Shown here: one piece after another, positions 1-35,300 of the stretch | Layout of the letters: each line of letters opens with the position of its first letter | Numbering within the stretch: position 1 is the stretch's first letter | IMG/VR virus record: IMGVR_UViG_3300034102_001587 | Location: 1-64,000 of that record | Length of the DNA stretch: 64,000 bases | Reading direction: 5' to 3' (one strand) | DNA from: an uncultured virus (IMG/VR IMGVR_UViG_3300034102_001587) | Lineage: Duplodnaviria > Heunggongvirae > Uroviricota > Caudoviricetes | Notes under the pieces: generated by a model | Databases searched by the model: none | The model's input: only the letters and a program-made list of their open reading frames with translations | What the model was told of the DNA's origin: nothing | Program-made: the position numbers and the translations under genes

Positions 1-2412
1 GGTGTAACCAAATCAAACTCGGAAAAAATATATTTTTCTCACATTACATTTGAAGATGTAAATGGTAATAAGTTTTCTACCATATCAAATGAAAACGCAG
101 AATACAAAATCAATCTAAAATCCGGTGTATATCAAATCAAAGCATCTTATGTTGGATATACTACTTACACAAATCAAATAAACCTAACATCAGATACTAC
201 ATTTGATATTGTATTTGCGGATGATGCAAAACAATTATCAGAAGTTGTTGTTAGAGCGGCACCTCAAAAAGTAACCGAAGTAGCGGTAGTAAGAACAATC
301 CGAAATAGTAATGTGGTATCGGATGGAGTATCAATAGAATTCATTAAAAAAACACCCGATAGAAATGTGGGTGATGCACTTAAAAGAGTAAGTGGTGTAA
401 CAATTCAAAACGATAAGTTTGTATTAGTAAGAGGATTGGCAGATAGATACAATTCAGCCATTCTAAACAAAACACTTCTACCATCAACCGAACCTGATAG
501 GAGAGCATTTTCATTTGATATAATTCCAACCGCATTAATTGATAACATTATAGTTTCTAAATCAGCATCCGCAAATCAGCCGGGAGATTGGAGTGGTGGA
601 TTGGTTCAGATTACAACAAAAGAAGTATCCGATAATTTCTTCAATATCTCATTGGGAAGTGGTTGGGGTTCGGTTTCAACTTCGAAAGGTTTCAAGTTAG
701 TTCAAGCTACCGAATTCCCTTCCACATTCCCATCCACTTACAAATATCGTATTAGTGGCAATGGTGATAAGAGATTATTTACAAAGCAATTCGGCAATCC
801 AACGGAAGAATCCTTTACATCTACTCCAAACTTAAATGGAGGTCTTTCGTTTGGTTATACAAAAGGAAAATTTAATTCCTTATTTAGTTCAACTGTAAGA
901 AACACATTTACTCTAAATAATATTGAAAGAAAGGATTATCAATCATCAACTGAATTAGCATACGATTATAAAGATATTTTATATACAAAAAGATTTTCTA
1001 CAAATGGTTTATTAAACTTAACTTATTTAGGTGAAAATCGATATAGCTGGAAAACATTAGTAAACTATCAGGCAGATGATACATACCTAACCCGTAGTGG
1101 TGATAACTTTGATAATGTTCAAAATGTTTTAAGTAATTCATCTAACCACATTAATAATATTGTAATCAATTCTCAATTAGATGGTAAACTTAAAGATTGG
1201 GATTTCAATTTAGGGTATAATTTTATATTCAGAGAACAGCCCGATTATAGAGTAAATCCAATTACAAAATCATTAGGTGTAAACGAACCTTATGCTACTG
1301 CATGGAGAGATACATATCGTTTTTGGAGTGTAATGGATGAGAATAGTTTTAATGGTAACATCAACAAATCGTTTGGTAACATTAAAGTTGGTGGTGGTTA
1401 TCTAAAAAAGATTAGAGGATTTAATGCAAGAATATTCAGATACCTTTCAACTGATATGTTAGATGAAATAACAAACAATACCGATAGATATACTGCTGAT
1501 TTTGATTTAGGTTCTCTTTATTCAATGTATGAAAACGAATGGGGTAAGTGGAAACTAAATACAGGTTTGAGAGGTGAGTATAATCTATTCAATGTTAATA
1601 CAGCAGATTTTAGTGGACAGAAAGTAAATGTGAATAGAGAGTATTTAGACCTTTTACCATCATTAAACCTTTCTTACAATTTAGAAAAAACAAAGTATAG
1701 ATTTTCATTAAGTAAAACATTGGCAAGACCTGAATTTAGAGAAGTAGCTAATTTTGCTTATTATGATTTTGTAAGAAACGCACAAATATTGGGTAATTCT
1801 AAATTAGAAAAATCTGACATATATAATGTAGATTTGAAATGGGAACTATATCCAAAAGCAGGAGAGAATATTTCAGTATCCGTATTTGGTAAACAATTCA
1901 TTAGACCGATAGAACAAATAGTAGCAGATGGTTCAGTTCCATCTAACTTATTATTAACTTATACAAATCCTGATAATGCACTTCTTTATGGTGTTGAATT
2001 GGAGTTTCGTAAAAAGGTAATGAGTTGGTTAGATGTATATACCAATACTTCGGTAATGAATTCTGAAGTAAATGTAAATGGAATAAAAAGACAATTACAA
2101 GGGCAATCAAACTATGTAATAAATGGTGGTGTTAATATTCACAAAAATAAAAACACACTTAACATAACTTACAATAGAGTAGGTGATAGAATATCAGCAG
2201 TAGGATTTCAGGGTTACCCAGACATATTTGAAAACAGCAGAGATGTATTGGATATAACTCTTTTACATAAACTCAAAAATGGGGAAATAAAATTGGCAGT
2301 AGGTGATGTATTTGGCCAATCATCAATCTATTATCAAAAGTTACAAAACCGAAATCTAATAAAAATAAACAACGAACAAACAATTTCATTAACATTAAAT
2401 TTAACATTATGA
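1..2412 (+). CDS. TonB-dependent receptor, Bacteroidota type, with N-terminal carboxypeptidase-regulatory-like domain; 5' end lies outside the window
   Basis: The frame is open from base 1 (GVTKSNSE...IKASYVGY...QLSEVVV), so the 313 start is internal. Plug motifs DALKRVSGV, VRGLADRYN, FDIIP; barrel motifs GLRGEY, LPSLNLSY, ARPEFRE, GNSKL, N.DLKWE.YP. Confidence 0.9.
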   Translation, partial: GVTKSNSEKIYFSHITFEDVNGNKFSTISNENAEYKINLKSGVYQIKASYVGYTTYTNQINLTSDTTFDIVFADDAKQLSEVVVRAAPQKVTEVAVVRTIRNSNVVSDGVSIEFIKKTPDRNVGDALKRVSGVTIQNDKFVLVRGLADRYNSAILNKTLLPSTEPDRRAFSFDIIPTALIDNIIVSKSASANQPGDWSGGLVQITTKEVSDNFFNISLGSGWGSVSTSKGFKLVQATEFPSTFPSTYKYRISGNGDKRLFTKQFGNPTEESFTSTPNLNGGLSFGYTKGKFNSLFSSTVRNTFTLNNIERKDYQSSTELAYDYKDILYTKRFSTNGLLNLTYLGENRYSWKTLVNYQADDTYLTRSGDNFDNVQNVLSNSSNHINNIVINSQLDGKLKDWDFNLGYNFIFREQPDYRVNPITKSLGVNEPYATAWRDTYRFWSVMDENSFNGNINKSFGNIKVGGGYLKKIRGFNARIFRYLSTDMLDEITNNTDRYTADFDLGSLYSMYENEWGKWKLNTGLRGEYNLFNVNTADFSGQKVNVNREYLDLLPSLNLSYNLEKTKYRFSLSKTLARPEFREVANFAYYDFVRNAQILGNSKLEKSDIYNVDLKWELYPKAGENISVSVFGKQFIRPIEQIVADGSVPSNLLLTYTNPDNALLYGVELEFRKKVMSWLDVYTNTSVMNSEVNVNGIKRQLQGQSNYVINGGVNIHKNKNTLNITYNRVGDRISAVGFQGYPDIFENSRDVLDITLLHKLKNGEIKLAVGDVFGQSSIYYQKLQNRNLIKINNEQTISLTLNLTL

Positions 2413-3605
2413 GAAAACTATTAGGAATTATTTTAATTTTGGGACTATTCAGTTGCCAAAAAGAATTGGGTGGAGATGATGCACCTATTAACATTCCATC
2501 ATCAACAACATTAACCGGAACTATTAACACAACAACAACTTTGACAGCAGACAAAGTGTGGACATTGAAAGGATATGTTTATGTAACCGATGGTGCTAAA
2601 CTTATCATTCAACCTGGCACTACAATCATTTCTGATATAAGTGAGAAGGGTGCATTGTGTATCGAAAGAGGTGCACAAATAATTGCGGAAGGAACTGTAA
2701 CAAAACCAATTGTATTTACATCAGGCAGACCTGCAGGTGAAAGAACTCCTGGTGATTGGGGTGGTATTGTAATATTGGGTAGAGCAAAAACCAATAGAAC
2801 ATCAGAACCAACTATCGAAGGTGGTATTGGTAGACCTTATGGTGGAACAAACGATTTAGATAATAGTGGTGTTCTAAAATATGTAAGAATTGAATACGCT
2901 GGAATTGCTTCAATGCCAAACTCTGAAATCAACGCATTAACATTAGGTGGTGTTGGTAGTGGAACAATAATTGATAATGTTCAAACTATCTATGCTAACG
3001 ATGATGCATTTGAATTCTTTGGTGGAACTGTAAATGCTAGAAACTTATATGCATTTGCAACTGCTGATGATGATTTTGATTTTGATTTTGGATACACCGG
3101 AACTATTACAAATGGTGTAGCAAAGAGAGACCCACAATTCGTAGATAACGGAGATGCTGGAAATGGCATTGAATGTGATAATGATGGCACGGGTTCAACT
3201 GCAACTCCATATACACATCCAAAACTATTCAATATGATTTTAGTTGGTCCTAATGTATCAACTGCATTGGCAAACCATAACTTAGGTTTAAGATTTAGGA
3301 GAGGGACTCAATTCACAATGAAGAATAGTGTAATTTGGGGATGGATGAAAGGTGGATTGAGTTTAGAAAGTAATGAAACTGCACAATTCGTAAAAGATGG
3401 TGTTTCTGTATTTGAAAACAATTCAGTAGGAACATTTAACCCTACGCTAAACTTTATCAGTAGAGCAACCACAATCCTAACAAATGACCAACTTAAAACT
3501 TTGGCATTAAGTAAGAGTAATAAAGAAATAGATGTTGTAATACCTGAATTAGATAAACCAATATGGGTGAATGGGTGGGCTAGATTCCCATCTAAAGGTA
3601 ATTAA
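2409..3605 (+). CDS. Lipoprotein with beta-helix repeats, of the kind typically paired with a TonB-dependent receptor in Bacteroidota
   Basis: Signal peptide II with lipobox LFSC; motifs PIVFTS, GDWGGIVILG, NSGVLKYVRIEYAG, DDAFEFFGG, DDDFDFDFGY; ATGA overlap with the receptor. Confidence 0.8.
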   Translation: MRKLLGIILILGLFSCQKELGGDDAPINIPSSTTLTGTINTTTTLTADKVWTLKGYVYVTDGAKLIIQPGTTIISDISEKGALCIERGAQIIAEGTVTKPIVFTSGRPAGERTPGDWGGIVILGRAKTNRTSEPTIEGGIGRPYGGTNDLDNSGVLKYVRIEYAGIASMPNSEINALTLGGVGSGTIIDNVQTIYANDDAFEFFGGTVNARNLYAFATADDDFDFDFGYTGTITNGVAKRDPQFVDNGDAGNGIECDNDGTGSTATPYTHPKLFNMILVGPNVSTALANHNLGLRFRRGTQFTMKNSVIWGWMKGGLSLESNETAQFVKDGVSVFENNSVGTFNPTLNFISRATTILTNDQLKTLALSKSNKEIDVVIPELDKPIWVNGWARFPSKGN

Positions 3606-3609
3606 AAAG

Positions 3610-3636
3610 AAAGGGAGTATTAAACTCCCTTTTTTT
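3610..3636 (+). terminator. Rho-independent terminator
   Basis: AAAGGGAGT-ATTAA-ACTCCCTTT followed by a T-tract directly after the lipoprotein stop. Confidence 0.85.
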
Positions 3637-3645
3637 ATATTTATA
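3637..3645 (+). promoter_or_regulatory. Putative phage late promoter motif ATATTTATA
   Basis: Recurrent intergenic motif, 20 nt before the ATG at 3666. Confidence 0.65.
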
Positions 3646-3665
3646 GGTAACTAAATAATATACCT

Positions 3666-4505
3666 ATGAAAAACCTATTATTTTTATTGGCATTTGTGCC
3701 AACACTAGCTTTTTCACAAGTTAGTAATTGGAGAAGTAATCCTCCACAACCACAAAGAAGCACATCATCGGTACAACCATCAACTCCACAAAGAAACGAT
3801 GTAAGTAGTTGGAGAAATGAATCACCGAGAGAATTTAATAGACCACATCAAACGAAACCAGGCTCTAACATAATCATTAACAATAACCCTTGGTTATGGA
3901 ATGATTGGGGTTGGGGATGGGGTTTCAATAGATGGAATATGTGGGGAGCACCTGCATTTGGTTGGAACTTCTACACACCTTCATTTTATTGGAATGATTG
4001 GGGCTACCGCCAACCACAAAGAATTTACGTTTACGAAGATGGTAAGAGAGATACAATAAGAGGTAAGAAACCAATTATCAGTTTTGGTTTACACAAAACA
4101 ACTGATAGACAAATTGGTGGATTCTTCACAATTGGTAATAGAGGATATTTTGTAATGGATTTTAGTTCCACTTATGAAATAGACCGTTCAACTTTCTTTC
4201 CTTATGGAACACTAGATAGAGTTGATTTTCCACTTATAAATGATTTAGTTAAAAAAAGAAGTATGTATTTAGGAGCCGGTAAACGATTTAAGAGAACTGG
4301 TGTACATGCTATGATAGGTTTTGGAAATGAAAGAATATTATTCAGAGGTAAGGATATAGTAGGTGAAATTACTTTTCCTAAATCCAATTCTAAGTTTACA
4401 TCAATTAAACTTGGTGCTATCAGAGATTTCAAAAACTTTACTTTGAAATTTGATTCTGACCCAATTAGAGGTTATTCTCAATTCGGACTCGGATTAAATT
4501 TCTAA
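3666..4505 (+). CDS. Secreted protein with Pro- and Trp/Gly-rich N-terminal region and probable C-terminal outer-membrane beta-barrel
   Basis: Sec signal peptide (AFS|Q); alternating beta-strands; C-terminal FGLGLNF resembles a Bam signal. Confidence 0.6.
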   Translation: MKNLLFLLAFVPTLAFSQVSNWRSNPPQPQRSTSSVQPSTPQRNDVSSWRNESPREFNRPHQTKPGSNIIINNNPWLWNDWGWGWGFNRWNMWGAPAFGWNFYTPSFYWNDWGYRQPQRIYVYEDGKRDTIRGKKPIISFGLHKTTDRQIGGFFTIGNRGYFVMDFSSTYEIDRSTFFPYGTLDRVDFPLINDLVKKRSMYLGAGKRFKRTGVHAMIGFGNERILFRGKDIVGEITFPKSNSKFTSIKLGAIRDFKNFTLKFDSDPIRGYSQFGLGLNF

Positions 4506-4514
4506 TAAATCGTT

Positions 4515-5873
4515 TTGAAAAAATTATTATCACTATTGACCATATTGGTATTTGTTTGTGTAAGCTGGAAAGCTGAAGGACAAACCTATACGCAAACCTA
4601 TAAAGATAAATGTACTGGTGAAATTAAAATAGCAACCACTACAATCACAAACGGATTTGCAACAGTATCTTTCTATAATCAAATAAGAGTATTCTCACCA
4701 CAGGAAGTAATGGCAGGTGCGGTTCAAGTTTGGATAACCGCAACTTATACAGCATATTCAACAATGGGATGTCCTACAAATCAAGTAGTTCAGCAAACAA
4801 TAACTCAAGCAGCTGCTCAAGCAGCATCACAAGCAGCATCACAAGCAGCATCACAGGCTGCAAGTAGTGCTGCAAGTTCGGCAGCTAGTTCATCGGCTTC
4901 TACCGCTGCAAGTAGTAGTGCAAGCGCAGCAGCTGCATCAACACCATCAACAACGGCACCACCTTCATCTGGTAGTAGTTCTTCATCGTCTTCATCGGGA
5001 AGTAGTTCATCTTCATCATCAAGTTCATCATCCGAAACCAAAACTGAAACTAAAACAGAGACTAAATCTGAAACAAAATCAGAGAGCAAATCAGAAAGCA
5101 AGTCAGAATCAAAAGAGGAATCCAAATCTGAAAGCAAATCGGAAGAAAAGAAAGAAGAATCCAAGTCAGAGGAGAAGAAGGAAGAAAAGAAAAAAGAAGA
5201 AAAAAAGAAATCCGTAGCAAACCCAATGATGTTAGCATCTGATTTGGCTGGTACGGAAGATATGGAAGGTAGATATGCTGTAATGATGAGTGTGGGAGTT
5301 TCTAAATCATCTCTTATGGGTGATAAATCATATTCAGCTACCGCACTTATTTGGAGTACCCTAAACCAATTCGCATTGAGTGCTGGGGTTACTAAGATGG
5401 ATTTTGATGAAGGTAAATTAAATGCGATACATTCATACGGAACTACATTTGCGTACCTTAAAGGAACTCTAATGAACCTTAATGGATATACCTACATCAA
5501 ACCACATCCTAAGTACGGAACATTTGGTTATAATGTGGGTGTAATTACCCTAATGATGCCTAGAATGGGTGAGGGTGGTTATGATGTATCCCTAAGTGCA
5601 TCTGCAGTTGGATTTTGGATGAAACCATTTCAATATAGTAGAAAGGTTACACTAACCCCTCAATTATTCCTAATGCAATCACCGATAGCATGGAATACAT
5701 TGACAGGAAATAGTTCAGTAACACGAAAACCTGGTGCTATAATTGGGTTAGGATATGATTATAAACTTAGTAAACGATTTGCTCTATCAACTTCGTATAG
5801 AGGAGCTATGACCTTTGAACCTAAATTTAATTTGATGAACAACTTCCAAATTGGTTCAAAGATGGTATTTTAA
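4515..5873 (+). CDS. Secreted protein with Ala/Ser/Glu/Lys low-complexity stalk and C-terminal outer-membrane beta-barrel
   Basis: TTG start and signal peptide; QAAS, SSS and ESKS/EEKK repeats; amphipathic strands (LGYDYKLSKRF); terminal Phe. Confidence 0.6.
   Translation: MKKLLSLLTILVFVCVSWKAEGQTYTQTYKDKCTGEIKIATTTITNGFATVSFYNQIRVFSPQEVMAGAVQVWITATYTAYSTMGCPTNQVVQQTITQAAAQAASQAASQAASQAASSAASSAASSSASTAASSSASAAAASTPSTTAPPSSGSSSSSSSSGSSSSSSSSSSSETKTETKTETKSETKSESKSESKSESKEESKSESKSEEKKEESKSEEKKEEKKKEEKKKSVANPMMLASDLAGTEDMEGRYAVMMSVGVSKSSLMGDKSYSATALIWSTLNQFALSAGVTKMDFDEGKLNAIHSYGTTFAYLKGTLMNLNGYTYIKPHPKYGTFGYNVGVITLMMPRMGEGGYDVSLSASAVGFWMKPFQYSRKVTLTPQLFLMQSPIAWNTLTGNSSVTRKPGAIIGLGYDYKLSKRFALSTSYRGAMTFEPKFNLMNNFQIGSKMVF
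4818..4853 (+). repeat. Coding tandem repeat CAAGCAGCATCA x3 (QAAS)
   Basis: Three exact 12-nt copies inside the low-complexity stalk. Confidence 0.9.
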
Positions 5874-5882
5874 AACAAATTA

Positions 5883-5891
5883 ATATTTATA
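5883..5891 (+). promoter_or_regulatory. Putative late promoter motif ATATTTATA
   Basis: 18 nt before the ATG at 5910. Confidence 0.65.
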
Positions 5892-5909
5892 CACATAAAA
5901 ACACGTCTT

Positions 5910-6566
5910 ATGAAAAAATTTGTTAATTTTAAAAACATTGCTATTGCAGCATTAATCATCTACATACTTTTACAATGGTTTAATCCAGGTGGAGTAATGC
6001 CAGGTGGAAGAACTATCAGAATTGATGGTAAAAAATATGAGGTTATTAAACATACAATTGATACTGTAGAAGTTGAAAAGATTAAAACAGTAACTAAAAA
6101 AGGTAAAGATATTGTACATGAAGTAATTGATGTAGATACCTTAGTTCTTAAAGAATTGGTAAATGTAGATAGTGCAGCTATTCTTAAAGATTACTTAGCT
6201 AAAATTATCTATAAAGATACATTAGTATTAGATGGTGGATTAGGAACTATTGCTCTTACCGATACTATCACAAAGAATAGAATTTTGGGTAGAACTTGGG
6301 ATGCTAAAGTAAAAGAAAGAACAATTAAAGAAGAACTTATTGTTAAAGAACCTGCAAAAGCACAACTTTATTATGGTTTGAATGCTGGGTTTAACAAAGA
6401 AGATTATGTATCTGCAGTTGGAGCTGGTCTAATATTAAAAACTAAAAAAGATAAAATTTATCAATTTGGTTTGGGTGTAAATAATAGAACTACCGATGGA
6501 ACTAATGGTTCATTCTCACCTTATGTTGGTTTTGGTACATATTGGAAAATTAAATTAAAGAAATAA
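5910..6566 (+). CDS. N-terminally membrane-anchored protein with C-terminal beta-strands (possible spanin-like envelope protein)
   Basis: N-terminal TM (IAIAALIIYILLQWF), DT-rich middle region, about 4 amphipathic C-terminal strands ending YVGFGTYWKI. Confidence 0.5.
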   Translation: MKKFVNFKNIAIAALIIYILLQWFNPGGVMPGGRTIRIDGKKYEVIKHTIDTVEVEKIKTVTKKGKDIVHEVIDVDTLVLKELVNVDSAAILKDYLAKIIYKDTLVLDGGLGTIALTDTITKNRILGRTWDAKVKERTIKEELIVKEPAKAQLYYGLNAGFNKEDYVSAVGAGLILKTKKDKIYQFGLGVNNRTTDGTNGSFSPYVGFGTYWKIKLKK

Positions 6567-8788: not shown

Positions 8789-8797
8789 ATATTTATA
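8789..8797 (+). promoter_or_regulatory. Putative late promoter motif ATATTTATA
   Basis: 24 nt before the ATG at 8822; heads the baseplate operon. Confidence 0.65.
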
Positions 8798-9215: not shown

Positions 9216-10445
9216 ATGCCATTAGAAAATTCAAGAGTAACATCAGCAAGGTCATCACAAAACGCCGTAGGTTCTACTCCAAAAGGATTGGGCACTGTTT
9301 ATGCTATTATTTTGGATGAAACAAGTCCTGTTATTAAAAATAAAGATTTAGATGTAAGTTATGTAGGGGCTATTCAATTTAGATTTAGTGGACAGATGTC
9401 TTCTGATGAAGCAAAATTACCTGTTGCACTACCATTTGATAAAAATTTCAAATCATTACCTGTTAAAAATGAAATAGTTGAAATTATAGTAGCTGGAAAT
9501 GGACAACCTTATTATAAAAGAATTGGAAATGAAGCAAGTCCAAATGTTAATACACCAGAAACTACAATTTCAAAATTATTTTCACCTGAAAAGGATAATT
9601 CTCAAAGTGCACAAGATTATAATAAAGTACAATCAACGGGAATTCAAAGAACTAATGCAGATGAATCAACAAAGTATGATGGCTATGGTGATTATTTTAA
9701 ATTAGAAAATGGAATACACAAATTAAAACTTAATGAAGGTGATATGCTTATTGAAAGCCGATTTGGACAATCAATAAGATTTTCCGCTTACAATAACAAC
9801 GATAGAACGTTTTCACCAACAGTAATAATAAGAAATGGAGAGAGTTCAATTACAAGAAATAATGATAATGCAAATACAATAAATGAAGACGTTGCTAGAG
9901 ATGGTAGTATAATTACATTAAGCTCTAATCAGTATCAATTAAACTTTGCACCCGGTACTGTTGATGATAAAGGAACTTCTGATTTTGAAACAAAACCAAA
10001 TAGTTTTAAATCATATCCATCTACATTAAAAGGAGACCAAATTTTAATAAATTCGGGAAGAATTATATTATCTGCAAAAAATGCGGAAATGATTTTTTAT
10101 TCTAAAAAGAATTACGGATTTATTTCTGATGGTGGATTATCAATTGATAACAAATTAGGAATAGATATAAACGTTGGGGATAATACGAATGTAAAAACTA
10201 ACGATAGAGATGTAAACCTCAACACAGGTAATGGTAAAATAAATTTAGGTGATAAAGAGTTAGAACCTTTAGTAAAGGGTGATAAGTGGGTTTCTATTAT
10301 GGAAGAACTTATTGATGCAATAGTAGCCCAAAATTATTTAACACCATCTGGTCCATCAAAGGTAGGACCTGAAAACTTACCAACATTTAATTCAATAAAA
10401 AGTAAATTAAAAACTGCTTTGAGTAACTTAAACAAAACTTCATAA
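9216..10445 (+). CDS. Baseplate hub/spike protein (gp5/GpV-like)
   Basis: OB-fold-like N-terminus (LPVKNEIVEI), EGDMLIESRFGQSIRFS, beta-repeat region and EPLVKGD..TPSGP C-terminus; located upstream of gp25/gp6. Confidence 0.6.
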   Translation: MPLENSRVTSARSSQNAVGSTPKGLGTVYAIILDETSPVIKNKDLDVSYVGAIQFRFSGQMSSDEAKLPVALPFDKNFKSLPVKNEIVEIIVAGNGQPYYKRIGNEASPNVNTPETTISKLFSPEKDNSQSAQDYNKVQSTGIQRTNADESTKYDGYGDYFKLENGIHKLKLNEGDMLIESRFGQSIRFSAYNNNDRTFSPTVIIRNGESSITRNNDNANTINEDVARDGSIITLSSNQYQLNFAPGTVDDKGTSDFETKPNSFKSYPSTLKGDQILINSGRIILSAKNAEMIFYSKKNYGFISDGGLSIDNKLGIDINVGDNTNVKTNDRDVNLNTGNGKINLGDKELEPLVKGDKWVSIMEELIDAIVAQNYLTPSGPSKVGPENLPTFNSIKSKLKTALSNLNKTS

Positions 10446-11632
10446 TGTCTTGGGAGATATTCAAAAATAATATATTAAATGTTGCTAACAATCCAGACCA
10501 AATAAGAAGTATAGAACAGGTAGCTGAATTGTATGCTAGAGAATATGATGCTGCGATAAAAAGAGGTAAAGATACTGTACATGGTGTACCTTTACAAAAA
10601 GGTAATGTTGAAGCAATGAAACAACTTTTTGTAGTTGCTTTACAAAAAGGTTTAACATCAAAACAACCTTATGATTTGGTTGGTGAAATGGGAAAGGGTG
10701 TTTTAGCATATTGGACAAGTGGTACAATGTATAATACGCCAATTCCCATCATACCAGCTGTTGGTGCTGTTGTAAATGTTGCTGTAATTTCTAATTCAAT
10801 TAGTAATCCAGGCCAATGGCAACCACCACAAAGTTTAGGCGGACAACCAAACTTTGAAATGAGTGAAGAACAAAAACAAGGAGCAAAAGAAGATTTAGAA
10901 AGTGCCAAACAAGAACTTGCAGCAATAGAAAATGACCCAGAAGTTTCTGAAGATATAAAAGAAGCAGCAAAAGAACAAATATCTTATCAAGAAACTAGAT
11001 TAGCCACAAATGAAAACTATTCAGTAGATGATGAAGATGTTAGAACACCACCAATAAGAACTGAAATACCTTTAGATGGTGGTGTTACAAATCCAATTCA
11101 GGTCACAACTAATACACCATCAAGACCAGCAGATGAACCACAAGGACCACCACCAAATGTGGCTGAATCCGATATTGGAAAAAGAATTGTTGCTTATGCA
11201 AATATGGATGTTGGTAAATTAGAAAACCCACTCCCACCGGGCAAACCTGAAAATTGGGGACCTTATGTTTCTTCTGTTCTTGCTGGAGTTGGTCATAAAG
11301 CACCAGCCTTTTGGTGTGCAGCTGCTGTTTCAAGTTGGTTCAAATCAGCGGGAGCAAAATCACCAAATAGTGCAGGATGTGACCAATGGGTTAGTTGGGC
11401 AAAGAAAAATGGATTGTGGAGTACAACACCAGCAATAGGAGCAGCCATATTATATGGTACACCTGCTGATGCACATCATATAGGTATTGTAGAATCGGTT
11501 GATGGAAATATAGTTAAAACGATAGAAGGTAATACTTCTGGTGGTGGGTTTAGTAGAAATGGGGTTGGTGTATTTAAAAAGAAAACTACTACTGCAAAAG
11601 CATTAGGTTATGTACTACCTGTAAAAAAATAA
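10445..11632 (+). CDS. Virion-associated CHAP/NlpC-type peptidoglycan hydrolase
   Basis: C-terminal AFWCAAAVSSWF, HIGIVE and TIEGNTS motifs. Confidence 0.8.
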   Translation: MSWEIFKNNILNVANNPDQIRSIEQVAELYAREYDAAIKRGKDTVHGVPLQKGNVEAMKQLFVVALQKGLTSKQPYDLVGEMGKGVLAYWTSGTMYNTPIPIIPAVGAVVNVAVISNSISNPGQWQPPQSLGGQPNFEMSEEQKQGAKEDLESAKQELAAIENDPEVSEDIKEAAKEQISYQETRLATNENYSVDDEDVRTPPIRTEIPLDGGVTNPIQVTTNTPSRPADEPQGPPPNVAESDIGKRIVAYANMDVGKLENPLPPGKPENWGPYVSSVLAGVGHKAPAFWCAAAVSSWFKSAGAKSPNSAGCDQWVSWAKKNGLWSTTPAIGAAILYGTPADAHHIGIVESVDGNIVKTIEGNTSGGGFSRNGVGVFKKKTTTAKALGYVLPVKK

Positions 11633-11635
11633 TAT

Positions 11636-12778
11636 ATGTCAGCAATTTCACCAACTAAAAATACAGGCTTAATAGTAGATGATTTTATAGCTTATGCTAC
11701 ACAACATCTTACAACAGTTGGTGGTACTATAAGTACAACTTCATTATATCCACCGACAGGAACTCCAGCACCAGGTATATTAACTTGGACAGGATACTTT
11801 GTTGACCCAGCAACTCCAAGTCAACCAACAGCTTCAGATATAAATGAAGTTCCAACTGAAGAAGAAGCAGAAGCTTTAGCAACTCAAAGAGAATTAGCAG
11901 AGGAAGATATAAAAGCGGTTCAAAGTGTAATTGAAGAAACCGATGATGAAGAAGTAAGACAAGTTGGTAAAAGATTTATAGACGAAACTGTAAATGAAAG
12001 GATACCTATTGGAGAAGCTGTGAAAACAAATAATGAAGTAAACGAAGAAGAAAAAAATAAAAGAAATAAAGAAACTGAAGAAGATGAAAGAAAAAATCCA
12101 CAAAAAAAAGATGCTGGCTCTGGTGGTAAAAAGTATAACAAAAATAAAAATTTAGATTTAATAGAAAGGGCATTAGCTAAAGTTGGTATTACTGATGAAG
12201 CAATAGTAAAAGCGGTAAAAGCAAATGCTTTAAAAGAATCTGGTGGACAACCTATTGTTGAATTTATGAATTATGGTGGTACATCAAATGAAAGAATTAG
12301 GTCTATATTTGGTAAACGAGCTTCAAAATATTCCGATGTAGAACTAAATGGAATTAAATCTAATCCACAAAGTATGGGAGATTTAATGTATGGTCCTGAT
12401 TCGGGTAATGTTGGTAAGTGGCTAGGAAATACATCATCTGGTGATGGCTTCCGATATAGAGGTAGAGGGTTTATCCAAATTACAGGAAAAGCTAATTATA
12501 CGGCAAATTCATTGGCAGTTTACAAAAATACTTCTTTAGTCACAAACCCAGAATTATTACAACAACCAGAACCAGCTGCAGATAGCTGTGCATGGTTTAT
12601 TAATAGAAGTCTTAAAACTTTTTCTAAAAAAATGGGTATTCCAACTCAAGGGGCTTCCCAATCGGATGCTAATTTATTAATTACAAGTATAATTGCTGGT
12701 AGTCCAATAAAGAGGGGTAGTGGTAGTTATTTAGCATCTTTAGTTACAAAAGTTGATGTATATTCTACACAAGTATAA
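11636..12778 (+). CDS. Virion-associated glycoside hydrolase family 19 (lysozyme-like) protein
   Basis: LKESGG (catalytic Glu), LGN..GDGFRYRGRGFIQITGKANY, NPELL, SCAWF. Confidence 0.85.
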   Translation: MSAISPTKNTGLIVDDFIAYATQHLTTVGGTISTTSLYPPTGTPAPGILTWTGYFVDPATPSQPTASDINEVPTEEEAEALATQRELAEEDIKAVQSVIEETDDEEVRQVGKRFIDETVNERIPIGEAVKTNNEVNEEEKNKRNKETEEDERKNPQKKDAGSGGKKYNKNKNLDLIERALAKVGITDEAIVKAVKANALKESGGQPIVEFMNYGGTSNERIRSIFGKRASKYSDVELNGIKSNPQSMGDLMYGPDSGNVGKWLGNTSSGDGFRYRGRGFIQITGKANYTANSLAVYKNTSLVTNPELLQQPEPAADSCAWFINRSLKTFSKKMGIPTQGASQSDANLLITSIIAGSPIKRGSGSYLASLVTKVDVYSTQV

Positions 12779-12804: not shown

Positions 12805-12813
12805 ATATTTATA
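12805..12813 (+). promoter_or_regulatory. Putative late promoter motif ATATTTATA
   Basis: 20 nt before the ATG at 12834. Confidence 0.65.
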
Positions 12814-26166: not shown

Positions 26167-26175
26167 ATATTTATA
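26167..26175 (+). promoter_or_regulatory. Putative late promoter motif ATATTTATA
   Basis: Follows the terminator, 17 nt before the ATG at 26193. Confidence 0.65.
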
Positions 26176-28049: not shown

Positions 28050-28985
28050 ATGCTATCGGGTAAGAACAAATTAAAAATAATCAATATATTAGACTCCGCA
28101 TTAGGAGTAGGTTCATCCTTAAAGGGAAATGAACAGGCGCATCATTGTCCTTTTTGTAATCACCACAAAAAGAAACTTCAAATAAATTTAGATACACAAA
28201 GATGGCATTGTTGGGTATGTGATTCTAAAGGTAGAAGTATATCATCACTCCTTCGTAAACTGAATGTAGACCTTAGGGATATATCGGTTGTAAAGGATGT
28301 ATATGGTGATGAACCAGAATATGATTCCAAAGAAGAATATGTAGCTAAGTTACAACTACCAAAAGAATTCAAACAATTATACTTCAAACCAAAAGGAATA
28401 AATCCAGTTTATAATCAAGCTTTACACTATTTAAATAAAAGAGGTATCACTCAAGCTGACATCGTAAAGTATAACATCGGATATTGTGAAGATGGTTTAT
28501 ATGGTGGAAGGGTTATTATACCTTCTTACGATGATAATGGTGACCTTAATTACTTTGTAGCTCGTTCTTTCTATGAAGATGAGAAAATGAAGTATAAGAA
28601 CCCACCAATTAGTAGAGATGTGATTGTATTTGATAATATGATTAATTGGGATGAGCCAATCACATTAGTTGAGGGAGTATTTGATTCTTTCTCAGTCAAA
28701 AGAAATGTAATTCCCCTATTGGGTAAATTCTTACTCAGCAAACTCAAAAATAAAATTATGGAAAAGGGTGTTAAGGATGTAACGATTATGTTAGATTCTG
28801 ATGCCGTAGATGATTCTACAAAACATACTGAATGGTTTCAAAAAAATGGAATCAAAGTAAGAAATATTATCCCAACCGATAAGGATGCTGGTGAAATGGG
28901 ATTTCAAAAAGTAAACGAAATATTAAAATCTGCCAAAGAAACTACATGGGATGATTTGGTGATGGCAAAGTTAAATAATATATGA
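28050..28985 (+). CDS. DNA primase (DnaG/gp61-like)
   Basis: Zinc finger CPFC...HCWVC; YL..RGI; RVIIP; KYKNP; TOPRIM LVEGVFD and LDSD. Confidence 0.92.
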   Translation: MLSGKNKLKIINILDSALGVGSSLKGNEQAHHCPFCNHHKKKLQINLDTQRWHCWVCDSKGRSISSLLRKLNVDLRDISVVKDVYGDEPEYDSKEEYVAKLQLPKEFKQLYFKPKGINPVYNQALHYLNKRGITQADIVKYNIGYCEDGLYGGRVIIPSYDDNGDLNYFVARSFYEDEKMKYKNPPISRDVIVFDNMINWDEPITLVEGVFDSFSVKRNVIPLLGKFLLSKLKNKIMEKGVKDVTIMLDSDAVDDSTKHTEWFQKNGIKVRNIIPTDKDAGEMGFQKVNEILKSAKETTWDDLVMAKLNNI

Positions 28986-31900
28986 GTAAATTAAAAAGGA
29001 TTTATCATATTGCGGATATTCATATTCGTAATGTAAAGAGGCATAAAGAGTTCAGACAAGTATTTGAAAAAATGTTTGAGGAAATCCGTCAAAGAGGAAC
29101 GGAAAACTCACTAATTTATTTAGCAGGTGATATTGCACATGCTAAATTGGAAATGTCACCTGAATTGGTGAAAGAGATTAGTTGGCTATTTACCGAATGT
29201 ACAAAACATTGTCCAACAATTCTTATTGCTGGTAATCACGATTGTAATATGAATAACTCTGACCGTTTGGATGTATTAACTCCAATCGTAGAGGCTTTGA
29301 ATTTAGAAAACTTTTGGTATTTAAAAGATACACAAATTTGGAAATATAGACAATGTGAATTCGCAGTGTTTAGTATTTTTGATAATAAAGATAATTGGCC
29401 ACAATCATACAGTTTAACGGCTGAAACAAAAATTGCACTATTCCACGGACCTGTGGACCATTCTGAAACTGATATAGGTTATGTAGTATCATCTCGACAT
29501 TTCACAACTGATATGTTTGATGGTTACGATTTAGCCCTTTTAGGTGACATCCACAAAAGACAAGAACTCAAATCGCCAAGAGGTTGTAGGTGTGTTTACG
29601 CAGGTTCGTTGGTGCAGCAAAACTTTGGAGAAACTTTGGACAAGCATGGTTTCTTAGTTTGGGATTTAGATACATTAACATATGAAGAAGTTGATATACA
29701 AAACGATTATGGTTATTACACCATGGATATTATCGCAGGAGTTGTTCCTGACGTTACTGATTTACCTACTCATCCTAGGCTTAGGGTAAGATTTTCTGAT
29801 ACTGATGCGGTAGATACTAAAAAAGCAATCACCGAAATTAAGGTGAAGTATGGTGTAGAAGATTTTACAACAATTAGGACTGATTCGTTGGCAAAGAAAA
29901 AGACTGGTGATAGGGATAATCAATTGGAGTTGGAAGATATTACGGATGTGACTTATCAAAACTCCTTAATTACGGATTATATACAAAGAATGATGCCATT
30001 CGCAACTGCGGATGATATAGCAGGAATACAATCGCTAAATAAGGACATCAATAATAGAATAGAGATGGATGAACTTACTAGAAACGTACAATGGAAGCCG
30101 GTAAGATTTGAATTCTCTAATATGTTCAGTTATGGTGAGGATAATGTAATCAATTTTGATAAAGTAAATGGACTGATGGGATTATTCGCACCCAATGCAA
30201 GCGGAAAATCATCTCTATTTGATGCAATCTCATTTTGCTTGTTTGACAAATGTAGCAGAGCATTTAAGGCAGCTAATATTATGAACAATAGGAAATCAGA
30301 CTTCCATTGCCAACTACATTTTCAGGTTGAAGGTATAGATTATCACATAAGGAGAGAAGCCCGAACAATTAATAAAGGAAGAAATGTTAAAGTAGATGTT
30401 CAATTCTGGAGAACCAATGGTGGGGAAAAGGAATCCCTTAATGGGACAGAGAGAAGGGATACTAACTCCGTTATAGAACAATACGTTGGAAGATATGAGG
30501 ATTTCGTAATGACTGCTCTATCACTACAAGGTAACAATGCACTATTCATTGATAAATCACAATCGGAAAGGAAAGACCTTCTTGCGCAGTTTATGGGCTT
30601 GGATATATTTGATAAGCTGTACGCAACTGCTAGTGAAGACATTAAGGAAGTGGCGGCACTAATCAGAAATTTCAAAAGGACAGATTTTACGACTGAATTA
30701 GCCCAAAAGGAAACCGACTTAACCGAAACTCAAAAAGAATTAGACAGTTTACAATCTGAATATAAACAATTAGAAAAACTTAAAGAAGAAAACCAAAACG
30801 CAATTTCTGATTTAAAGGAATCCCTAACACCAATTGATTCTAAGTTAGACCTTATACAATTGGAAAAATCTAAAAAGAAGATTGATAGTGATATTGAGAA
30901 TAATGAATCACTTATAGAAACTAAAAAGAATAATATTGAAAGTTATTTTGAAGTTCTTACCGAAGCATCGCAATCAATATCACAATACGATACAGTAAAT
31001 GGTTTACCTATTAATGAAGCTAAGAAAGAATGGGATTTGGCAAAAGGTAAATTAGCAGATGTTCAACAACAAATAGATAAGTTGGAAGGACAATACGAAT
31101 CTAATTTGGAAAAACTTAAACATTTGGAACAACATGAGTATGACCCAAATTGTAAGTTTTGCATGAATAATGTATTCGTTAAAGATGCTATCGCAACAAA
31201 AGAAATTGTTAAAACACAAGAAAGACAATTGGAAACTTTGAATATAGCACATCATGCTTTAATCAAAGCAACTGAACCATTTTCTGAAGTAGAATATGTT
31301 TGGGAAAAATTAGTTGAACTACGAAACAAATATCAAAAGGGCGAAATCCTTAAACAAAAAGGAGAAGCCGAATTGAGTGGATTGAAAACCGCTCATCAAC
31401 TTTTAGAAAATCAATTAGATGGAGTTAAAACTGATATAGAACGATACCATGCAAACGAAGCAACAATTCGTAAGAACAATGAATTGAATGAAGAAATTAA
31501 AGGATTGGAAATTCGTAAGAAAAACATAGATAAGGAACTTTCAGATATTAATAGACAGATTCTTCAAAAAACTGGCGCAATTGGTTCTATACAATCATTT
31601 ATAGACTCCACTAAAGCTAAGATGGATGAAGTAAAACAATTGGAAAATAAGAATACTCTTTACACTTACTATTTAGATGCTGTTAAGAAAGATGGTGTAC
31701 CATATGAACTTATTTCCAAAGCAATGCCTGTAATTGAATCCGAAGTGAATAACATATTAGCACAGGTTGTTGATTTCTCACTTTCAATGGATACTGATGG
31801 TAAGAACATTAACGCTAAAATCGTTTACGAAGACCAGGAGTGGGCTCTGGAGATGTGTAGTGGTATGGAGAAGTTCATATCGGGATTAGCGATTAGAGTG

Positions 31901-32128
31901 GCTCTAATTAACATATGCGGCCTTCCTAGACCTAACTTCTTAGTTATTGATGAAGGGTTTGGAACTTTGGATGCGGATAACCTATCTTCACTCTTTATGA
32001 TGATGCAATATCTGAAAACCCAATTCGATTTTATTTGGATGATTTCTCACTTAGAACAAATGAGAGATATTGTTGATGGACTAATTGAAATTAAGAAAGA
32101 TAATGGGTTCTCTAAGATTAACTTTTAG
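28982..32128 (+). CDS. Fused Mre11/SbcD nuclease and Rad50/SbcC ATPase (gp47+gp46-like)
   Basis: DIH, GD, GNHD, FHG, GDIH phosphoesterase motifs; Walker A NASGKSS; Zn-hook CKFC in the coiled coil; signature CSGME; Walker B IDEGFGTLD; ISH. Confidence 0.93.
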   Translation: MSKLKRIYHIADIHIRNVKRHKEFRQVFEKMFEEIRQRGTENSLIYLAGDIAHAKLEMSPELVKEISWLFTECTKHCPTILIAGNHDCNMNNSDRLDVLTPIVEALNLENFWYLKDTQIWKYRQCEFAVFSIFDNKDNWPQSYSLTAETKIALFHGPVDHSETDIGYVVSSRHFTTDMFDGYDLALLGDIHKRQELKSPRGCRCVYAGSLVQQNFGETLDKHGFLVWDLDTLTYEEVDIQNDYGYYTMDIIAGVVPDVTDLPTHPRLRVRFSDTDAVDTKKAITEIKVKYGVEDFTTIRTDSLAKKKTGDRDNQLELEDITDVTYQNSLITDYIQRMMPFATADDIAGIQSLNKDINNRIEMDELTRNVQWKPVRFEFSNMFSYGEDNVINFDKVNGLMGLFAPNASGKSSLFDAISFCLFDKCSRAFKAANIMNNRKSDFHCQLHFQVEGIDYHIRREARTINKGRNVKVDVQFWRTNGGEKESLNGTERRDTNSVIEQYVGRYEDFVMTALSLQGNNALFIDKSQSERKDLLAQFMGLDIFDKLYATASEDIKEVAALIRNFKRTDFTTELAQKETDLTETQKELDSLQSEYKQLEKLKEENQNAISDLKESLTPIDSKLDLIQLEKSKKKIDSDIENNESLIETKKNNIESYFEVLTEASQSISQYDTVNGLPINEAKKEWDLAKGKLADVQQQIDKLEGQYESNLEKLKHLEQHEYDPNCKFCMNNVFVKDAIATKEIVKTQERQLETLNIAHHALIKATEPFSEVEYVWEKLVELRNKYQKGEILKQKGEAELSGLKTAHQLLENQLDGVKTDIERYHANEATIRKNNELNEEIKGLEIRKKNIDKELSDINRQILQKTGAIGSIQSFIDSTKAKMDEVKQLENKNTLYTYYLDAVKKDGVPYELISKAMPVIESEVNNILAQVVDFSLSMDTDGKNINAKIVYEDQEWALEMCSGMEKFISGLAIRVALINICGLPRPNFLVIDEGFGTLDADNLSSLFMMMQYLKTQFDFIWMISHLEQMRDIVDGLIEIKKDNGFSKINF

Positions 32129-32385: not shown

Positions 32386-35300
32386 ATGGCGAGAATAAAA
32401 AAATACGCAGAAGTTTTAACTCAACCATTAACATCTTTTCAAACTTTTTTAGTTGATACGAATCCAAATTCAACTTATTTTAGAATAACTGAGTTTAAGG
32501 ATACGTTTACTGGTGGTAAAAATGGATTCCTAATAGAAGGGTCTCAACACCTTAAAGAATCAACTGAAATAAAGATTCAAATATTAGATGTAAATGGTGA
32601 CCCGATTTATTATGAGCCTGGCAATGGTGTGCCCGAATATTATGAAGGTGTATCAAAACTTGTAGCCGTTTATGTTTACGAAGATACTCCTATTGGTGAA
32701 GCAAAAATAACTGTTTTAGGGGAGTTAAAAACTTATTTAGATGAGGGTGGTGTAGTAAGGGATGTTCCTGATGAGTGGAAAAGTGTATATAATGTAAAAT
32801 GGGAAAAAACTTTTAAAGTTAATAAATTAATTTCTAATGAAGATAAGGTAAGATTTTATAGAAGACCGGAAGTAACAATAAATGAAATAGTTAAACCAAT
32901 ATTTTCAAACATCGTTAGGCAGGTCACCCAAACGGGTTTTATAAATGGTATTCCACAAATCCCAGCGGAAGGTGAAAGTGTGTCTGGTTATACATTACCA
33001 ACATCATATCTTTTAACAACCCTAAATGATTCATTTTGGACAGGTTCTGTTACAAACAATTATATCACACTCACAAATAAGGGTGTAAGTTTATTAGCGG
33101 ATGATGTTGTTAGTGATAGAGATTTAACAGTATCAACTCCATATAATGAAAATGGTATTGTAAAAACATTAATAGCAGAACCTTATTCTGTAACATTTAA
33201 TTACATTGAAGGTAATGATAATTTAAAAACAGCATTAACTGGTTCATTCGCTAAAATTAATATAACCGATTTAACAACATTTGTAGGAGATTGTGCAAGA
33301 GTAAAAATATATAGAAGGTCACAATCAGATTTATCGGATTATCAATTTGTACAAGAAATACAATTAGAATCAAATGAATTACTTAAAGATTTAGAATCAA
33401 ATTCAAAAAATGAAGAATATTACGGTAGTTTTGACCAATTTAATTATAAAAATTATTGGATAACTTCTTCAAATAATTTAGTAACATCATTTAATCAAAA
33501 TTTCTTATATAACTCTGTTAAGTTAAACAGTTTAATTTCTGGAGAAAGGTTTGCAACAACAAAATCTTTAGATGTAAGAGAAAATACTGAATATACTCTT
33601 ACTTTTAATACTAGAAAAGATGCGGTAGGAAGTGCTAACCATTATATAAAAGCATATTTGAGCGGTTCTAGACTAAGTACATACAATAACGTAACTAGTA
33701 CAATTCAAATTGAGCAGCCAATCGTAACGATAACTTCTGATAGTAGTGTGTTACAAAAATCAAATGTAGTAGCTAACTTTAAAGCAGAAGATATTAATAA
33801 TACTAGATTATATTTTGAAACTGAGGGTAGTGATTGGTATATATCCGATGTTAGTTTAAGAGCATCTCAAGAAACATCTTTTAGTCCTGATGAAATAACA
33901 TTCATACAACCAATACCAAGGACTTTACCTAGAGAAACATTTGATTTTAGGTTTCAATTTTACGATATAAATAACAATTATATCCCTGTTTTGGTAGAAG
34001 AAACAAAAACATTTGATGGCGGTAATTTAAATGTAATTAATAAAGATTTACAATTAGTACCATCATCGCTTTATTTTCAATTTGATTCTGGTTCTGGTAA
34101 TGGCAACCCGTTACCACCAACAACAGTTTATATTGATGTAATTAAAAACTATCTAACGGGTTCGGTAAATTTTACATCACGTTCTTTTGATTTTGCAAAT
34201 AACGAATTGTTCAATACCGATTATGTTGGAGTTGGTTCACAATATCCAGGTTTATTATTGGATAGGAATTTGGATACAGTAAGATTAACCGTAGAAAACT
34301 TTACAGGTTCCAGAGCAGATAAATTAGTTCAATATATAGAATTTACTGGTGAATGTGAAGGTGTAACTGATTCAATTATTATTACAAGAGTTTTAGATGG
34401 TAAGGGTGGAGTTAATCATTTCATTAGACCTTATAGAGGAACTCAAATTAGAAATAGTAGTACTGCATCTTTAGAAATTCAAGCGGTAAGAATTGATGGT
34501 ATTAATGAAATTAATCTTTATAGTGGTGCTCAAGATGGTTGGGGAAATATACAACTACACGTTTTATCAGCATCTCTTAATCCAGCAACTGAACCTGAAA
34601 AATTTATTCCTTTATCATTGGCATCATCAAGCAAATATATCAGAGGAATAATAACTGGTTCGTTGGGTTCTAAAGAAATTAACTATAATGCAGTATTTGA
34701 TAGAGATTCAATAGATTTTAGGAGAATTATTTATTTAATGCCATCATCATCTGCAGCAGCTTCACCGGCATATGCAGTATCTGGTTCGGTTTTAGCATCT
34801 ATTATTTTAGAAGATTTGCAAGATGGTTTGGATACACCAAGTATAGTATTTAATGCTGATACATTTGCTATAAATCCAAGAAATGAAATAAATTTTAGAC
34901 CATCATTTGCATTTGCTACGGCTTCATTTTTTGAAAGAGGAACAACCAACGCAATAACAGCATCGTTTAGGGTATTCCCTTCGATGTCAATTAATAAAGA
35001 TTATGTTCCTGAATATTGGTTTTATTATACAACACAAAGTGCAGATAAAACTATTTCCGTAATAGCAAGAGATGAAAATAAAAATGTAATTGATTCATTA
35101 CCACTAAATTCATATATAGGGCAATCTAATAAGCAAAGTAAAAATTTAACAATTACATTTACATATACTGAACCTTGGACTTCTGCATCTATAAGTTTAG
35201 ATAAAACATTCACTATTATACCAGAAGGTAAGCCGGGAGATGAAACAATTATTTTTGAAGTAACTCCTGCATTGGTATCTCTTAATGCAACAGCAGAAGG

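Follow-up and report, generated by a model that had tools for sequence, protein, structure and literature searches.

At the left end of a 64,000-nucleotide stretch of DNA from an uncultured tailed virus (IMG/VR record IMGVR_UViG_3300034102_001587) lie two adjoining plus-strand genes, one encoding a TonB-dependent receptor (1..2412) and the other a beta-helix lipoprotein (2409..3605). The stretch, hereafter the window, is the first 64 kb of one 136,291-bp contig. The two-gene operon is closed by an intrinsic-terminator-like hairpin (3606..3636, plus strand; 13-bp stem, 5-nt loop and T-run), and the promoter-like motif ATATTTATA stands directly after it on the same strand (3637..3645). A first-pass annotation of the window had described an apparently intact receptor that overlaps an Asp-rich beta-helix lipoprotein, a terminator closing the operon, and direct contiguity with genes carrying a phage motif. 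These features are borne out by the present analysis, with the qualification that the receptor is whole in an overlapping viral record and incomplete in the window, where its 5' end is open (803 aa) and the first 22 codons are missing. We find that the pair is a host-derived auxiliary gene set in a phage genome, retained by selection.

The complete receptor gene is found in a viral-record locus that matches the window at 100% identity over 2,653 bp (L001, from the 160,007-bp viral record G001). There it occupies positions 9935-12412, starts with ATG and encodes 825 aa, the first of which form a Sec signal peptide that ends in FA (next residue Q). Degradation of the gene at its 5' end, which the annotation had named as a finding that would refute its reading, is thus contradicted, and since the identical copy carries the full gene, the receptor in the window has been truncated by assembly. 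From its N-terminus the protein consists of the signal peptide, a carboxypeptidase-regulatory-like domain, a TonB-box-like motif, a plug and a barrel. The three domains all score above the Pfam cut-offs: CarbopepD_reg_2 (PF13715) with 36.7 bits, Plug (PF07715) with 31.5 bits against a cut-off of 23.9, and OMP_b-brl_3 (PF14905) with 92.7 bits. Between the N-terminal domain and the plug, a motif of the form (L/M)xEV(V/T)(V/I) is conserved in phage and bacterial copies alike; by its resemblance to such elements it is a candidate TonB box. An AlphaFold2 model of the receptor has a mean predicted local distance difference test score (pLDDT) of 77.4, and about 85 in the barrel. Compared with the Protein Data Bank (PDB) by Foldseek, this model gave 210 matches at E<=1e-3; among the matches listed, all are TonB-dependent transporters, with template-modelling (TM) scores of 0.46-0.67, the best being PhuR (1.4e-23), and XusA in its complex with the lipoprotein XusB (9gbc) is among them. 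A sequence search of the receptor against solved structures returned no match at E<=0.001, and the best NCBIfam match, to the TonB-Xanth-Caul subfamily, falls under its cut-off. By its plug, barrel and export signal, the protein is a TonB-dependent transporter. Phage receptors end in Leu (...NLTL, ...NLNL or ...NYNL; window 2389-2412), whereas the copies from the bacterium Aquirufa have an aromatic end (...NYNF).

The lipoprotein gene begins within the receptor gene, its start overlapping the receptor stop by 4 bases (ATGA). Its product of 398 aa opens with the lipobox LFSC, with the cysteine at position 16, and continues as a right-handed parallel beta-helix in an AlphaFold model built from 24 sequences (pLDDT 89.5; predicted TM score, pTM, 0.88). 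Motifs of Asp, Asn and Glu are invariant across the 24 aligned homologues. Although the local Pfam, PHROGs and NCBIfam libraries gave no match, precomputed labels and the ESM Atlas assign the protein to PF28492 (Beta_helix_4), a pectate-lyase-like family found chiefly in Bacteroidota, and more than 7,900 metagenomic relatives exist, bacterial and viral ones pooled. Structural matches to the model are many, yet unspecific. VIA-align gave Z scores of 21-24 to alginate epimerases, tailspikes, NosD and PL6 lyases at only 7-13% identity, Foldseek against the PDB returned none at E<=0.001, and a viral structure library returned generic tailspike-like helices only. SusD-type domains (PF07980/PF14322) had no match in the lipoprotein in the local Pfam library, and the fold is a beta-helix; the pair may therefore act in a SusCD-like manner but is no SusCD pair. 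We infer that receptor and lipoprotein are physical partners.

The contig and the record G001 together define the genome in which the pair resides. The contig shares its first 2,653 bp and its last 1,402 bp with G001 at 100% identity. Joined at these overlaps, they form a map, circular or circularly permuted, of about 292,243 bp, in which phage genes flank the pair on both sides. Circularisation of the contig by itself had been considered and was rejected, there being neither a terminal repeat nor a sensible gene spanning the joined ends. The contig's gene set is T4-like and includes baseplate wedge, terminase, portal, prohead protease, major head protein (capsid), sheath, tube, three giant fibre genes, DNA polymerase, SSB and UvsX; 93 of 94 open reading frames share one strand. 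In the 10 kb upstream of the receptor, L001 carries twelve co-oriented genes, several with a signal peptide or lipobox, and no bacterial housekeeping gene is among the twelve. The annotation had regarded the pair as phage cargo without an integrase and had named host-chromosomal sequence upstream as the finding that would overturn this; the upstream sequence in the overlapping record is that of a phage, and a tyrosine integrase was found in neither half of the genome. A gene for TonB was likewise found in neither half, and a tRNA scan of the window was negative. The phage is a jumbo-sized, T4-like myovirus from a lake, and its host, judging from gene similarity, is probably an Aquirufa-like freshwater member of the Cytophagales.

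The motif ATATTTATA, which is likely to be the phage's late-type promoter, occurs 13 times in the window where 5.2 copies would be expected, and none of 100 shuffles reached that number; it sits 15-45 nt 5' of many genes (for example at 5883-5891, 8789-8797, 12805-12813 and 26167-26175). The copy that follows the terminator opens the next transcription unit, beginning with g02, and thus marks the end of the cassette. Many other phage copies have a similar hairpin 3' of the lipoprotein gene. The motif is absent 5' of the receptor, where a host-type box stands instead.

Cellular relatives were sought in a collection holding one genome per prokaryote species, which yielded 364 stretches with relatives of the lipoprotein; 80 loci were analysed. 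The nearest copies are those of Aquirufa and related Cytophagales (lipoprotein 68-73% and receptor 64-67% identical), followed by those of Chitinophagaceae and Sphingobacteriales (52-66% and 31-43%). The receptor lies directly 5' of the lipoprotein on the same strand in 73 of the 80 loci; six of the others are on contigs that begin too late to judge, and L143 alone differs. No other phage gene had a match in the bacterial loci, those of Aquirufa included, and these loci are therefore not prophages. A phylogeny with host pairs, which the annotation had proposed, places the phage copies in one clade with the Aquirufa/Spirosomataceae copies at support 100 for both genes. In the FastTree phylogeny of the lipoprotein, the 49 distinct phage copies form one clade (support 99), which joins 10 Cytophagales copies. 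In the receptor tree, phage and Cytophagales copies share one clade of 56 rows, inside which 40 phage copies are separated from a mixed group (7 from phages, 9 from Cytophagales), a topology that may reflect one capture, two captures or a rooting artefact.

The neighbourhoods of these host homologues, whose examination had also been suggested, repeatedly contain phosphate genes. Aquirufa loci have, downstream of the pair, a gene of the AlkP superfamily, a phosphate-selective porin O/P and PHO4 (PitA-like) transporters, of which there are one or two. In Chitinophaga and Niastella, PHO4, PhoU_div and Metallophos (calcineurin-like phosphoesterase) genes lie just 5' of the pair, and in Chitinophaga and Paracnuella a histidine kinase and a response regulator are nearby, their best NCBIfam matches being PhoR/PnpS and PhoB. 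Altogether, a phosphate gene occurs within 8 kb in 36 of the 80 bacterial loci (23 of the 43 with full flanks), in two bacterial orders. The phage pair descends from a receptor-plus-lipoprotein unit set among phosphate-acquisition genes in bacteria. The same architecture is known from Flavobacterium johnsoniae, where Fjoh_0545, a TonB-dependent transporter, and Fjoh_0546, an FII lipoprotein with a pectin-lyase fold, belong to the cluster PUSIV in the phoBR region; according to Lidbury et al. (ISME J 2021, PMC8115612), depletion of inorganic phosphate (Pi) raises their expression by log2 fold changes of 8.0 and 9.9, respectively, and both proteins are abundant in the exoproteome.

A conserved leader accompanies the phage cassette irrespective of the flanking genes, and within it lies the host-type box mentioned above. 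A double TTAACA-type box with 11-bp phasing is present in all 12 PHO4 promoters of the Cytophagales (Aquirufa type). From these 12 PHO4 sites alone we derived a 22-nt matrix, with which 57 phage loci of 12-22 kb were scanned on both strands. The top-scoring site of the entire locus falls at -62 to -87 of the receptor start in 35 of the 57, and a receptor-upstream box is among the top three hits in 43. In L001, the box scores 14.6 bits at -76, a score that was reached by one of 100 shuffles of that locus, and the whole 136-kb contig (272,582 positions) holds only two hits of at least 12 bits, both weaker and intragenic. Receptor promoters of the Cytophagales, which were not used for training, carry hits of 13-28 bits in all nine cases. 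The operon is probably switched on by the host's PhoB via this predicted Pho box. A parallel for the motif and its use exists in cyanobacteria, whose Pho-box consensus likewise has a TTAA core and where cyanophage pstS is under host PhoBR control (PMC10976474, citing Zeng & Chisholm 2012). Two loci whose receptor lacks the N-terminal carboxypeptidase-regulatory-like domain (L030, at 9956-12196, and L038; 747 versus 825 aa) also lack the upstream PHO4-type box. A PhoH homologue is encoded in the other half of the genome (G001:C1:23139-23789, 171 bits); scanned with the PHO4 matrix, its locus showed no box of 8 bits or more.

The pair is widespread among phages. A collection of viral contigs held 119 stretches with receptor relatives (60-100% identity), 73 of which were retained as loci. 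The lipoprotein gene lies directly 3' of the receptor on the same strand in 62 of these, and in the remaining 11 the contig ends in or just past the receptor, so that there are no exceptions to the pairing. The flanks match the neighbours of the window phage in many loci and differ elsewhere: the pair stands between a lysin-like gene and baseplate genes in four loci (L002, L003, L022 and L026), comes after primase and exonuclease in L030, and in five further loci (L041, L011, L017, L058 and L060) has homing endonuclease, DNA methyltransferase, endolysin, thymidylate synthase and RNA ligase genes among its neighbours. Six loci that share just the pair with the window phage were checked, and their surroundings are phage-like. 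In composition, the pair (GC 32.5%; GC at third codon positions, GC3, 19%) is like the phage (median GC3 17%) and unlike the nearest bacterial copies, those of Aquirufa (GC 37-40%, GC3 28-36%). The cassette is under purifying selection, the median ratio of nonsynonymous to synonymous substitution rates (dN/dS) among distinct phage copies being 0.148 over 832 receptor pairs and 0.149 over 1,042 lipoprotein pairs, with dS around 1. The capsids of the phages that carry it are 47-89% identical to that of the window phage. A 326-kb record, with a capsid only 47% identical, has 77% identity in the receptor and 87% in the lipoprotein. Conservation of the cassette far beyond that of its carriers' capsids indicates exchange among divergent large phages. 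It was found in none of 12 large records with capsid relatives, including a 252,603-bp record rated 100% complete with a capsid 71% identical, in a search that had no positive control and in which most of the 80 capsid-relative loci are short fragments. The cassette is accordingly an accessory one, exchanged among divergent large phages.

Several observations concern what lies beside the pair in other phages. Nine phage loci have a calcineurin-like (Metallophos) phosphoesterase gene 1-3 kb 3' of the pair, its product about 40% identical to the pair-adjacent enzyme of Chitinophaga. In two loci (L036, 13953-15382; L062, 13619-15137), a family-2 glycosyltransferase stands between the pair and this phosphoesterase. 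These two enzymes are possibly a phosphate-stress lipid-remodelling pair; in a table of Lidbury et al., lipid remodelling includes a glycosyltransferase as well as PlcP, an enzyme of PF12850 (PMC8115612), and calcineurin-like phosphoesterases are described as common in huge phages anyway (10.64898/2026.10.24.761521). The other genome half of the window phage encodes a phosphoesterase of 253 aa, which was considered as a counterpart of the pair-associated enzyme and rejected, tblastn finding no similarity at E<=1e-3. A distant version of the pair, with reversed gene order and 28% and 38% identity, occurs in the 635-kb genome of an uncultured phage (LR745206.1, 4581-8421), where it adjoins ClpP and RNA ligase genes.

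Around the pair of the window phage, further genes appear to be directed to the cell envelope. Directly downstream, g02 (3666-4505, 279 aa) and g03 (4515-5873, 452 aa) both encode proteins with a signal peptide and a C-terminal Phe, as in outer-membrane barrels. A long low-complexity linker, rich in Ser/Ala and then in Lys/Glu/Ser, runs through g03, whose C-terminal half resembles small outer-membrane beta-barrels; its relatives are mostly viral, and the label Porin_O_P of one Atlas cluster is treated as a lead only. Both genes are kept beside the pair in many related phage loci and are absent from the bacterial loci. Upstream, positions 575-9865 of L001 form a block of exported proteins, in which signal peptides occur in u02, u03 and u11 and lipoboxes in u04 and u05; the matches of u03 to C-type lectin and dockerin are weak, and u09 and u10 are a DUF2589 protein pair. 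The upstream block, the receptor pair, g02 and g03 together make up about 16 kb of envelope-directed genes.

Sequencing runs connect the cassette with lakes and give a hint of its expression. Fifteen lake-water DNA runs contain 59-73% of the sampled words of window positions 1-6000, and six lake or freshwater RNA runs contain 5-8% of them. Contigs from four RNA runs match both genes at 90-100% identity, and three RNA-library contigs (2227-2644, 2186-2482 and 2240-2659) bridge the gene junction. Two contigs end at 3638 and 3662, close to the terminator, which is a weak hint.

In our favoured interpretation, which we hold with moderate confidence, the pair is a host-derived auxiliary phosphorus-uptake cassette of a large T4-like phage that infects Aquirufa-like Cytophagales, and it is switched on by the host's PhoB. 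In a phosphate-starved infected cell, PhoB would bind the 11-bp-phased TTAA-type boxes some 76-80 nt 5' of the receptor gene and turn on the operon. Both proteins would be exported by the Sec, Lol and BAM pathways of the host, and the beta-helix lipoprotein at the surface would capture or process a phosphorus-containing substrate. The receptor would then import this substrate across the outer membrane, energised by the TonB-ExbBD complex of the host, since the phage has no TonB of its own. Uptake could be completed by periplasmic phosphatases and PitA-type transporters of the host, and it would feed phosphorus into replication of the genome of about 292 kb. A bolder proposal, to which we give slightly less than even odds, is that PhoB operator, importer, lipoprotein and terminator make up a two-gene, self-contained Pho-regulon plug-in. 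Passed horizontally between divergent jumbo phages that infect freshwater Bacteroidota, it would tap the phosphate-starvation signalling of the host and give each phage an additional energised route across the outer membrane for a phosphorus compound. The annotation had suggested nutrient uptake, with phosphorus or metal as candidates, or remodelling of the infected-cell surface; phosphorus is supported by the host neighbourhoods, the shared box and the F. johnsoniae architecture, and no evidence was found for metal.

A number of points weigh against the phosphorus-uptake interpretation or one of its parts. Regarding the neighbourhood, the fetched flanks of 44 of the 80 bacterial loci contain no phosphate gene, and the PhoB, PhoR and PitA matches, while the best-scoring, lie under the curated NCBIfam cut-offs. 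Homology to Fjoh_0545/0546 is deduced from domain architecture and context, and the window phage does not have the glycosyltransferase and phosphoesterase found after the pair in some of its relatives. Regarding the promoter, 14 of the 57 phage loci have no box among their top three hits, the rank being above 100 in, for example, L004, L027, L030, L038 and L068. The phage loci are related to one another, and 35 of 57 therefore does not represent 35 independent events. The strongest box of the Aquirufa receptor promoters is mostly on the opposite strand, at about -109, whereas the phage box is forward, at about -78, and Pho boxes predicted in phages are described as unreliable, often failing in binding assays (PMC10976474). 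The RNA-library matches are no more than a hint of expression because such libraries may hold DNA, and the contigs reveal neither strand nor expression level. The plug of the receptor is modelled at low confidence (pLDDT 24-66), and the host assignment is based solely on gene similarity.

A first alternative, which we judge unlikely, is that the pair acts in superinfection exclusion or otherwise alters the receptor landscape, masking or replacing a host surface complex used for adsorption, with uptake secondary or absent. Known parallels are Llp of T5 on FhuA and Lom of lambda on LamB. The position of the pair inside a block of exported proteins and lipoproteins (u02-u05, u11, g02 and g03) is compatible with such surface remodelling, as is its spread among divergent phages that would have a common host group, and exclusion has been raised for phage-encoded outer-membrane proteins generally in a preprint on huge phages (10.64898/2026.10.24.761521). 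However, it is the transport machinery that is best conserved: relative to the Aquirufa consensus, the plug is 83% identical, the barrel 69% and the N-terminal domain 31%, and the TonB-box-like motif is retained. Within the barrel, identity is 74% in the non-strand parts and 67% in the strands, so that the surface loops give no sign of diversifying selection. The lipoprotein, moreover, retains every invariant acidic motif of the bacterial family, and a conserved phosphate-type promoter box would be unexpected for an exclusion gene.

It is also improbable, in our estimate slightly more so, that the cassette imports a substrate without phosphorus, be it iron or another metal, a vitamin or a glycan, and that the phosphate neighbourhood is coincidental or a matter of co-regulation only. 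The best structural matches of the receptor model are heme and siderophore transporters (PhuR, Cir, PfeA and FoxA), but these matches are generic, with tied scores at 10-13% identity. The sub-cut-off TonB-Xanth-Caul match, a lipoprotein fold common to pectate and alginate lyases and epimerases, and the bacterial loci without a nearby phosphate gene can be read in the same direction. Against this, the eight annotated bacterial neighbourhoods hold no iron, heme, cobalamin or glycan-utilisation gene, except for a sigma/FecR pair in one Pedobacter locus, whereas phosphate genes recur in two bacterial orders together with a common promoter box. The F. johnsoniae architecture, furthermore, is reported as specific to Pi and repressed under N and Fe limitation (PMC8115612).

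Two further explanations are judged highly improbable. That the pair is no phage cargo, but flanking host chromosome, the edge of a prophage or the product of a chimeric assembly, was suggested by its place at the extreme contig end, by a first stretch of about 10.4 kb in the window without any PHROG match and by the typically bacterial nature of the genes; this is contradicted by the independent record, which reaches at least 10 kb upstream into phage-type genes and joins the other end of the contig, the internal position of the pair in 62 of 73 viral loci, its phage-like composition, the lack of other phage genes in the Aquirufa loci and the lack of a detectable integrase. The second is that the beta-helix protein is a virion tailspike or depolymerase unrelated to the receptor. 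Fold searches do return many phage tailspikes (TSP2 of CBA120, Det7 and others), but these are only 7-13% identical, with scores tied to those of non-phage beta-helices. The protein begins with a signal peptide of the lipoprotein type, lipobox included, shares 68-73% identity with lipoproteins encoded on Aquirufa chromosomes and is always coupled to the receptor.

Elsewhere on the contig, four giant genes have repeated tail-fibre or collagen-like PHROG matches, three of them at contig positions 64109-73285 (3,058 aa), 74294-87913 (4,539 aa) and 90014-104167 (4,717 aa) and one in the window at 32386-40500 (2,704 aa). In a single 1,048-aa open reading frame at window positions 28982-32128, the N-terminal third matches an SbcD-like nuclease and the remainder an SbcC-like ATPase; it is an apparent fusion of the SbcD and SbcC subunits.

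Phosphorus genes of phages, with cyanophage pstS and phoA as the known cases, are the textbook example of the reprogramming of host nutrition, and the window phage would pursue the same strategy, by other machinery, in Bacteroidota that live as heterotrophs in freshwater. If the cassette is indeed driven by host PhoB, viral use of host two-component systems extends to another phylum and to outer-membrane transport, and beta-helix lipoproteins of the FII/ElpS type would be important enough in phosphorus scavenging for phages to keep, which would make their substrate an attractive experimental question for phosphorus cycling in lakes. Should the two genes prove to be a mobile plug-in as proposed, they would be the first case in which a phage carries TonB-dependent nutrient uptake under hijacked host regulation, and they would offer a handle on the function of the FI/FII/ElpS lipoprotein family.

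Comparison with known systems puts these proposals in perspective. A preprint of October 2026 by Yuan & Chen (10.64898/2026.10.24.761521) reports 1,603 outer-membrane beta-barrels of huge phages, among them 22-stranded TonB-dependent receptors, with a transcribed example in a Lak phage; in aquatic phages it also notes phosphate-acquisition genes next to outer-membrane proteins. Its main text, as available to us, has no mention of 'lipoprotein', a receptor/beta-helix pair, an origin in a Pho locus or a promoter box, and its Supplementary Table 7 may list members of the family. In the literature surveyed, we likewise found no description of a receptor/beta-helix pair in phages, of its Pho-locus origin or of its promoter box, with the same proviso for the supplements of the preprint. 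The SusCD-like and XusAB systems resemble the phage pair in that a TonB-dependent barrel with a carboxypeptidase-regulatory-like domain is encoded beside a surface lipoprotein. The phage lipoprotein is a beta-helix, unlike the helical SusD-type protein and unlike XusB, and the phage pair is a putative complex.

Another known protein for comparison is ElpS of Caulobacter crescentus, described by Le Blastier et al. (2010, PMC2996285) as a surface-anchored lipoprotein that is induced by Pi starvation and linked to phosphatase activity; its reported identity to the FI, FII and FIII lipoproteins is 31-36% (PMC8115612). ElpS belongs to an alphaproteobacterium, and a type II secretion system assists its release, whereas the lipoprotein studied here comes from a phage of Bacteroidota. 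The F. johnsoniae system belongs to that same phylum. Fjoh_0545 has the same combination of PF07715, PF13715 and PF14905 as the phage receptor, and in both systems a pectin-lyase-type beta-helix lipoprotein comes next. The Fjoh pair lies beside phoBR (PMC8115612), and the cellular relatives of the phage pair lie beside phoBR-type, OprP-type and Pi-transport genes; the phage pair, unlike Fjoh_0545/0546, stands alone, detached from other Pho genes. Among phages, the counterparts are the cyanophage genes pstS and phoA, likewise host-derived phosphorus genes carried on T4-like phages behind Pho-box-like repeats with a TTAA core, and thought to boost the phosphorus supply of starved infected cells (PMC10976474). 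Control by PhoB is experimental in the cyanophages, according to the same source, and predicted for the window phage. The gene products differ as well: where the cyanophages supply a periplasmic binding protein and a phosphatase, the window phage supplies, in Bacteroidota, an energised outer-membrane transporter and a surface lipoprotein.

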